DNA of 64,000 bases from Escherichia coli (GTDB lineage: Bacteria > Pseudomonadota > Gammaproteobacteria > Enterobacterales > Enterobacteriaceae): NCBI RefSeq assembly GCF_003334335.1, contig NZ_QOWQ01000013.1, one strand, 5' to 3'. Both the position numbers and the translations under genes were made by a program. Of this stretch, positions 37,831 through 38,375 are shown piece by piece. The notes beneath the pieces are model-generated. The model saw nothing but the letters and a program-made list of their open reading frames with translations. It did no database searches and had not been told where the DNA came from. The number at the start of each line of letters is the position of its first letter. Within the stretch, counting starts at the first letter, position 1.

Positions 37831-38375
37831 CATGCCGGATACGGCCTACGGTTCGGCACAGACTTGTAGGCATGATAAGACGCGACAAGCGTCGCATCAG
37901 GCATTGTGCGCCAACTGCCGGATGCGGCGTGAACGCCTTATCCGGCCTACGGTTCGGCACAGACTTGTAGGCATGATAAGACGCGTCAAGCGTCGCATCA
38001 GGCATTGTGCGCCGACTGCCGGATGCGGCGTGAACGCCTTATCCGGCCTACGGTTCGGCACAGACTTGTAGGCATGATAAGACGCGACAAGCGTCGCATC
38101 AGGCATTGTGCGCCAACTGCCGGATGCGGCGTAAACGCCTTATCCGGCCTACGGTTCGGCACAGATTTGTAGGCATGATAAGACGCGTCAAGCGTCGCAT
38201 CAGGCATTGTGTGCCGACTGCCGGATGCGGCGCTGACGCGCCTTATCCGGCCTACGGTTCGGCACAGACCTCCAGGCATGATAAGACGCGTCAAGCGTCG
38301 CATCAGGCATTGTGCGCCAACTGCCGGATGCGGCGTAAACGCCTTATCCGGCCTACGGCACGTTAAACACCGCAT
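37831..38375. repeat. tandem BIME/REP array, about 5.5 copies of a ~101-bp unit
   Basis: unit gccggatgcggcgtgaacgccttatccggcctacggttcggcacagacttgtaggcatgataagacgcgNcaagcgtcgcatcaggcattgtgcgcc recurs at 37917, 38018, 38119, 38220, 38323. Confidence 0.85.

Follow-up and report, generated by a model that had tools for sequence, protein, structure and literature searches.

The convergent operons yjjI-yjjW and yjjU-yjjV of Escherichia coli run towards each other within the window, by which we mean the whole 64,000-nucleotide stretch of DNA that was analysed. Their last genes, yjjW and yjjV, face each other across a spacer of 522 nt between the two stop codons, which is filled completely by a tandem repeat array. 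The yjjI gene lies upstream of yjjW and matches NCBIfam TIGR04040, and the ORF upstream of yjjV has no NCBIfam match, its counterpart in matching genomes being called yjjU by RefSeq. The main features of the locus are the following.

36967-37830, + strand: yjjW, glycyl-radical enzyme activase (NCBIfam TIGR04041, 397 bits against a cutoff of 250; ORF list; RefSeq)
37834-37849, + strand: Y remnant ("mini-Y"), GCCGGATACGGCCTAC (sequence and allele comparison)
37850-37950: BIME-2 unit 1 (repeat finders, motif scan and unit split)
37951-38051: BIME-2 unit 2
38052-38152: BIME-2 unit 3
38153-38255: BIME-2 unit 4 (103 nt)
38256-38356: BIME-2 unit 5
38353-39132, - strand: yjjV, TatD-family metal-dependent hydrolase (NCBIfam NF008522, 575 bits against a cutoff of 481; ORF list)

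The region is matched by all 5,426 complete E. coli genomes, in 5,044 of which most of the query lies at a yjjW/yjjV locus. In each of 10 records inspected, RefSeq annotates convergent yjjI-yjjW and yjjU-yjjV. The TGA stop of yjjW (37828-37830) lies 3 nt before the array, and on the other side the coding overlap is limited to the stop codon of yjjV.

Two repeat finders delimit the array in closely similar terms. Tandem Repeats Finder detects one array, 37842-38358, with a period of 101, 5.1 copies and 94% matches without indels (score 932), and a gapless repeat finder places five in-register copies at 37833-38358, spaced 101, 101, 101 and 103 nt apart, together with a 202-nt higher-order repeat. 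Resolved into its units, the array spans 37834-38356 and consists of a 16-nt Y remnant followed by five units of 101-103 nt. The initial annotation had described a tandem BIME array between convergent yjjW and yjjV, which the repeat finders, the motif scan and the flanking annotation bear out. Its tandem unit of about 101 bp stands as well, while its figure of 5.5 copies gives way to five full units plus the remnant, or about 5.2 copies; the right end it had set at 38375 lies about 20 nt inside the yjjV coding sequence, the true edge being at 38356.

Within the array, a REP motif scan found five Y units on the + strand in strict alternation with five Z2 units on the - strand, so that each repeat is made of two inverted REP palindromes, as had been proposed. 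In the whole window, the REP core motif occurs 27 times against 1.2 expected. The palindromic units lie at the following positions.

37866-37902, 37967-38003, 38068-38104, 38169-38205 and 38272-38308, - strand: Z2 units, 37 nt each (motif scan, folding and naRNA4 alignment)
37917-37950, 38018-38051, 38119-38152, 38220-38255 and 38323-38356, + strand: Y units, 34-36 nt (motif scan, unit split and folding)

Every repeat follows the same order: a 16-nt head-to-head S linker (GGTTCGGCACAGACTT), a Z2 unit (-), a 14-nt tail-to-tail linker and a Y unit (+). The Z2 units share the inner stem GACGC...GCGTC. The Y unit of the fourth repeat carries a symmetric insertion of 1+1 nt, which makes its upper stem one pair longer, and the mini-Y at 37834-37849 corresponds to a Y unit from which the inner 18 nt are missing. 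An inverted-repeat finder run with default seeds reported no pairs at the array, because REP stems are short and bulged; the palindromic units were defined by motif scans and folding in its place.

The BIME-2 class of repeats has been described since the early 1990s. BIME-1 elements pair z1 with y, occur singly and have a long L linker in which an IHF site is often found, and BIME-2 elements pair z2 with y, occur as several copies in tandem and have a short S linker, their copies at any one locus differing in number among strains (Ton-Hoang et al., PMC3333891). All sequence-level traits of BIME-2 are present here, namely Y with Z2 (not Z1) units, inverted alternation and a short S linker, as are tandem copies that vary among strains and an extragenic location at the 3' ends of transcription units. 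BIME-1, RIP and RIB elements resemble the array in placing inverted REP palindromes at gene 3' ends; BIME-1 differs in having a single Y + Z1 pair and an L linker with an IHF site, in contrast to the tandem Y + Z2 units and 16-nt S linker of the array. Lacking Z1 and the L linker, and being tandem instead of single-copy, the array falls outside the BIME-1 / RIP class. IHF binding, which the initial annotation had attributed to such arrays, is a property of the BIME-1 L linker (PMC3333891), and the claim was dropped: the IHF consensus WATCAANNNNTTR is absent from the array, and its three matches in the window all lie elsewhere.

The element is already known. It is the BIME-2 array named REP352 in E. 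coli K-12, present here as a five-unit allele with ten palindromic units and a Y remnant, and it is an ordinary feature. EcoCyc REP352a-h is cited as overlapping yjjV by 2 nt (bioRxiv 10.1101/2024.07.17.603846), and the K-12 locus holds four Y and four Z2 units, that is, eight palindromic units, in agreement with the labels a to h. The K-12 element shares its locus, flanking genes, unit sequence and overlap with the yjjV stop with the array in the window, and differs in having four units in a 419-nt spacer as opposed to five units in 522 nt. The array in the window is identical to that of strain ET201. When "mobilome" DNA was prepared under SDS and copper stress, REP352 was also among only eight REP regions that withstood exonuclease; reads across a circular junction were not obtained for it, and the authors left the protection unexplained (bioRxiv 10.1101/2024.07.17.603846).

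Overlapping ORFs of 47-186 aa run along both strands of the array. They had been put down as a spurious stack produced by the repeats, and this judgement held, as the 10 RefSeq records inspected annotate no ORF within the array. Their presence on both strands and their length might suggest that one or more encode real proteins, for example the 186-aa frame at 37998-38558 (-), which we regard as next to impossible. The frames overlap each other, and their translations are repeated Arg/Cys-rich readings of the palindromes; moreover, ORF length follows copy number, and the ORFs vanish in alleles with no or one unit.

Such alleles were found in a rank-spaced sample of 60 records (59 chromosomal rows, not phylogenetically independent), from which one record was fetched per span class. 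Locus spans in this sample form separate classes in steps of about 101 nt, represented by the following spacers.

Spacer of 33 nt: 0 units, one complete Y unit only (Ecol_545)
Spacer of 112 nt: 1 Z2 (CUVET24-IPD24)
Spacer of 216 nt: 2 units (E. coli 536)
Spacer of 314 nt: 3 units (strains 300490 and Survcare253)
Spacer of 419 nt: 4 units (K-12)
Spacer of 516-522 nt: 5 units (ST131, ET201 and the window)
Spacer of 617 nt: 6 units (PEC240)

Among the 59 chromosomal rows, alleles with 0, 1, 2, 3, 4, 5 and 6 units occur in 2, 13, 12, 5, 10, 16 and 1 rows, respectively. The longest array belongs to Escherichia sp. MOD1-EC7003 (NZ_PTRE01000059.1, L013 3230-4351), where 10.9 tandem units, with 22 palindromic units and 11 matches to the Rfam family naRNA4, extend over about 1.1 kb between yjjW and yjjV. 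REP elements of K-12 are quoted as reaching 12 units at most, and these 22 palindromic units come close to doubling that figure. The predicted variation in copy number among strains was thus checked and found, the number of units being 0-6 in the E. coli sample and 11 in one cryptic Escherichia species. Within the clones sampled the number is constant (K-12 derivatives have a span of 1498 nt and O157:H7 strains one of 1295 nt), which argues against a fast-switching locus. A scan for the exact S-linker pattern in one genome per GTDB species gave only two matches, both in Escherichia and both at yjjW-yjjV, with 2 units in one species and 10.9 in the other; the locus-specific unit variant was not found outside Escherichia by this exact pattern, which would miss diverged copies.

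The two edges of the array behave differently across alleles. The mini-Y forms the left boundary in all array-bearing alleles compared, and the right boundary takes two forms. In the first, a full Y unit contains the yjjV stop, and YjjV has 259 aa and ends in AVFNVP; this form is found in the window (38353-38356), K-12, E. coli 536 and the 0-unit allele. In the second, seen in ST131-like alleles (L008 1330-1360) and in CUVET24-IPD24 (L005), 22 extra nt and a 16-nt Y remnant follow, and YjjV has 260 aa and ends in AVFSVSG. The gene therefore has two alternative 3' ends that are linked to the right boundary of the array.

The 0-unit allele suggests that the ancestral state was a single Y REP overlapping the yjjV stop. 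From it the array would have expanded, and later grown or shrunk, as 101-nt or 202-nt repeats recombined unequally or replication slipped between them. This is the simplest reading of the allele series, with RAYT-mediated recombination (as in PMC3333891) as an alternative. Local amplification is supported by the linkers shared within the locus, by the series of 0, 1, 2, 3, 4, 5, 6 and 11 units at the same position and by the 202-nt repeat. Since 0- and 1-unit alleles occur naturally, a long array is dispensable.

The surroundings of the array add a separate observation. The array is identical to that of ET201, yet the best full-length match of the yjjW-yjjV segment (37300-38900), again to ET201, reaches only 98.7%; the creD-arcA segment (12000-15000) matches E. 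coli C and WG5 at 100% identity. This contrast in identity suggests either that recombination has made the surroundings of the array a mosaic or that the strain is absent from the complete-genome set.

At the RNA level, the palindromes are predicted to form hairpins of -21 to -25 kcal/mol (Y) and about -15 kcal/mol (Z2) on either strand. The fold of the whole array has z-scores of -10.9 and -10.2 on the two strands against dinucleotide shuffles. A terminator scan found no intrinsic terminator (hairpin and U tract) within 37831-38352; its three matches all lie in coding sequences, and their count is not above the shuffle expectation. Any termination in the array must hence be factor-dependent. 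No sigma-70 promoter was found in the array, nor was a C>G skew of the kind seen at Rho-utilisation sites; GC skew is close to zero across the array, as expected for palindromes.

Comparison of 28 distinct units from 11 alleles showed variable columns at 12 of 66 paired and 28 of 39 unpaired positions (Fisher p = 7e-8), a weak test, as descent and gene conversion link the units to one another, their own consensus supplied the structure and a constraint on the palindrome at the DNA level would yield an identical pattern. This bias of variation towards loops and linkers, with conserved stems, bears on the view that the array has no selected function at its present length and is a selfish or neutral by-product of amplification, by RAYT/TnpA-REP or unequal recombination, tolerated between gene ends. 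The wide length polymorphism, including 0- and 1-unit alleles, fits that view, as does the finding that TnpA-REP cleaves and recombines BIMEs in vitro, copy-number variation of the kind seen at this locus being typical of BIME-2 (PMC3333891). The inverted Y/Z2 doublets, like the inverted REP doublets of about 100 nt known as REPINs, which RAYT transposases mobilise, are moreover able to fold as one long hairpin; REPINs differ in being dispersed, while the units here stand head-to-tail at one locus. Apart from the conserved stems, two points speak against it: the array has stayed at one locus in E. coli and in two or more cryptic Escherichia species, and RAREFAN does not predict REP352 to be a RAYT-associated REPIN (bioRxiv 10.1101/2024.07.17.603846). 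As an account of the whole element we consider it possible but rather unlikely; for the length of the array, neutral or selfish amplification is plausible, and it is compatible with hairpins that act on the flanking transcripts.

An action on the flanking transcripts is the most likely role of the array, which we read as a two-way 3'-UTR hairpin block that combines protection from exonucleases with partial Rho-dependent attenuation. The array would lie in the 3' untranslated region of both convergent transcripts, and a transcript entering it from either side would fold into a row of stable stem-loops. These hairpins would block 3'-to-5' exonucleases and so protect the upstream message; they would also pause RNA polymerase and stop part of transcription, in part through Rho. 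Together, the exonuclease block and the attenuation would reduce collision and antisense read-through between the two operons. For the complete reading, that is, the REP352 BIME-2 array as a 3'-UTR hairpin block that has grown and shrunk from one Y REP, we estimate a probability of roughly 0.75, its functional part being inferred by analogy.

The analogy is with other REP elements, and by it the role of transcript stabiliser or terminator named in the initial annotation is plausible. Experiments on REP325 showed that it terminates transcription, in part through Rho, and stabilises upstream mRNA (Harris et al., bioRxiv 10.64898/2026.03.23.713779). The same study reports a genome-wide association of REPs in convergent intergenic spacers with higher expression of the two genes, and places about 40% of these REPs within mapped bidirectional terminators. 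It also reports that REP effects are context-dependent and that, across the genome, a terminal REP does not prolong mRNA half-life (bioRxiv 10.64898/2026.03.23.713779). In the supplements of this preprint, yjjW appears merely in an unrelated differential-expression row.

The yjjV side of the array has a further peculiarity in that the TAG stop (complement of 38353-38355) is the CTA of GGCCTAC, the conserved sequence that heads the last Y unit. Liang, Rudd and Deutscher reportedly described in 2015 an effect on translation of REPs that lie within 15 nt of a stop codon. Such an effect may apply to yjjV, because the hairpin on its message begins at the stop codon; this first hairpin may hinder the termination of yjjV translation.

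A different kind of role would operate on DNA. Positive supercoils from convergent transcription would accumulate precisely at the position of the array, which could be a strong gyrase site or topological insulator that absorbs them; in vivo, the BIME-2 class is enriched for gyrase cleavage, mostly at Y units and independently of transcription (PMC6379681). Published Topo-Seq data bear directly on the locus in K-12. In Table DS3 of that study, the element BIMEs2 4620060-4620447 (387 bp) has neighbours at 3,473 and 7,608 nt, and these distances equal those in the window (to BIMEs ending at 34393 and starting at 45964), which identifies the row as the yjjW-yjjV locus. It has no cleavage sites under any of the four drug conditions, although reads from near-identical repeats may map poorly, compared with 35 sites at tldD-yhdP in the same table, and only a subset of BIME-2 elements is cleaved by gyrase (PMC6379681). 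The gyrase binding that the initial annotation had assigned to the array accordingly finds no support in the published K-12 data, and with this caveat on mapping a gyrase-based role appears improbable.

All five units also match the Rfam family naRNA4 (RF02564), at 64-79 bits against a gathering score of 59.5, in alignments that span the Y hairpin, the linker and the Z2 hairpin.

37869-37947, 37970-38048, 38071-38149 and 38275-38353, best on the - strand: naRNA4 matches (Rfam RF02564)
38172-38252, best on the + strand: naRNA4 match (Rfam RF02564)

Four of the five matches score 77-79 bits, and these four score higher on the - strand, which is the strand of yjjV transcription; the fifth, at 64-67 bits, reaches 66.7 bits on the + strand and 63.9 on the -. 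The naRNA4 family was built from REP325, the BIME-2 array of yjdM-yjdN (PMC4550694), so a match reflects shared REP sequence. REP325 resembles the array in the window in its alternating Y and Z2 units, its unit of about 100 nt (exactly 100 nt in the sequence taken from K-12), its 5-6 tandem copies and its 3'-UTR location. The two differ in their head-to-head linkers (AAGTCTGTGCCGAACC in the window, AAATTCCCGCACCCTCC in REP325) and tail-to-tail linkers (TTGGCGCACAA and CGGTGCCGAC, respectively), in the Z2 stem mismatch ATCATGCC, which the array in the window carries, unlike REP325, and in their genomic setting, REP325 lying between tandem genes of one operon and the array in the window between convergent genes. 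Linkers that are common within the locus but unlike those of REP325 indicate that the two arrays were amplified locally and independently. Further single BIME-2 units in the window match naRNA4 as well (24777-24855 and 46023-46105), which indicates that the family marks BIME-2 units in general.

Two sigma-54 motifs flank the array from within the last genes of the operons.

38523-38537, - strand: sigma-54 motif TGGCATCGTTGTTGC, inside yjjV
37037-37051, + strand: sigma-54 motif TGGCTCTGTTTTTGC, inside yjjW

They correspond to the K-12 intragenic "sense" sigma-54 binding sites IS56 and IS57 (PMC4591121); in the literature searched, yjjV and yjjW are named together only for these sites. The site in yjjV, about 170 nt upstream of the stop codon, is directed into the array, and a transcript starting from it would correspond to the strand that gives the better naRNA4 score for four of the five units.

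These features could be taken to mean that small RNAs of the naRNA4 type have a second source in the array, where yjjV read-through would be processed into Y-Z2 RNAs of about 80 nt that bind HU and condense the nucleoid. The five scores above the Rfam threshold, four of them best on the yjjV-transcribed strand, the reported sigma-54 binding motif directed into the array and the co-purification of REP325 RNAs with HU (PMC4550694) would agree with such a source. The Rfam match, however, reflects the common REP sequence and not a demonstrated function, and 0-unit alleles occur in healthy lineages. For REP325 itself, deletion or overexpression of REP325/naRNA left nucleoid volume unchanged, and REP-REP contacts were not seen in Hi-C, according to a 2026 preprint co-authored by the senior author of the naRNA4 paper of 2015 (bioRxiv 10.64898/2026.03.23.713779). 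We therefore hold a nucleoid-condensing RNA source to be very unlikely, and retain the 3'-UTR hairpin block as the preferred reading.

Several further features were recorded elsewhere in the window.

24709-24855, 45964-46105, 6233-6337, 20323-20445 and 34319-34393: smaller REP/BIME loci
6267-6309: ES036/CssrF match, within another REP locus
11593-11712, - strand: threonine operon leader (Rfam RF00506, 121 bits)
46245-46328, + strand: tRNA, adjoining a BIME

The threonine operon leader on the - strand shows that the window crosses the conventional E. coli coordinate origin in reversed orientation.

A more far-reaching reading is that the length of the array, which ranges from 0 to 11 units in Escherichia, serves as a heritable, lineage-specific dial on the survival of the yjjU-yjjV and yjjI-yjjW messages and on the release of naRNA4-like RNA. 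We regard this as a long shot. If it were true, read-through of yjjV or transcription from the sigma-54 site within that gene would release the Y-Z2 RNA, and the REP-embedded stop codon would couple the termination of yjjV translation to hairpin unwinding.

Taken together, the importance of these results goes little beyond sound annotation. ORFs called inside the array should be discarded, IHF binding should not be ascribed to arrays of the BIME-2 type, and naRNA4 matches in E. coli signal BIME-2 units generally, not dedicated sRNA genes. The natural series of alleles with 0, 1, 2, 3, 4, 5, 6 and 11 units in this one convergent spacer would, in addition, allow the idea of REPs as 3'-UTR dials to be tested without engineering.
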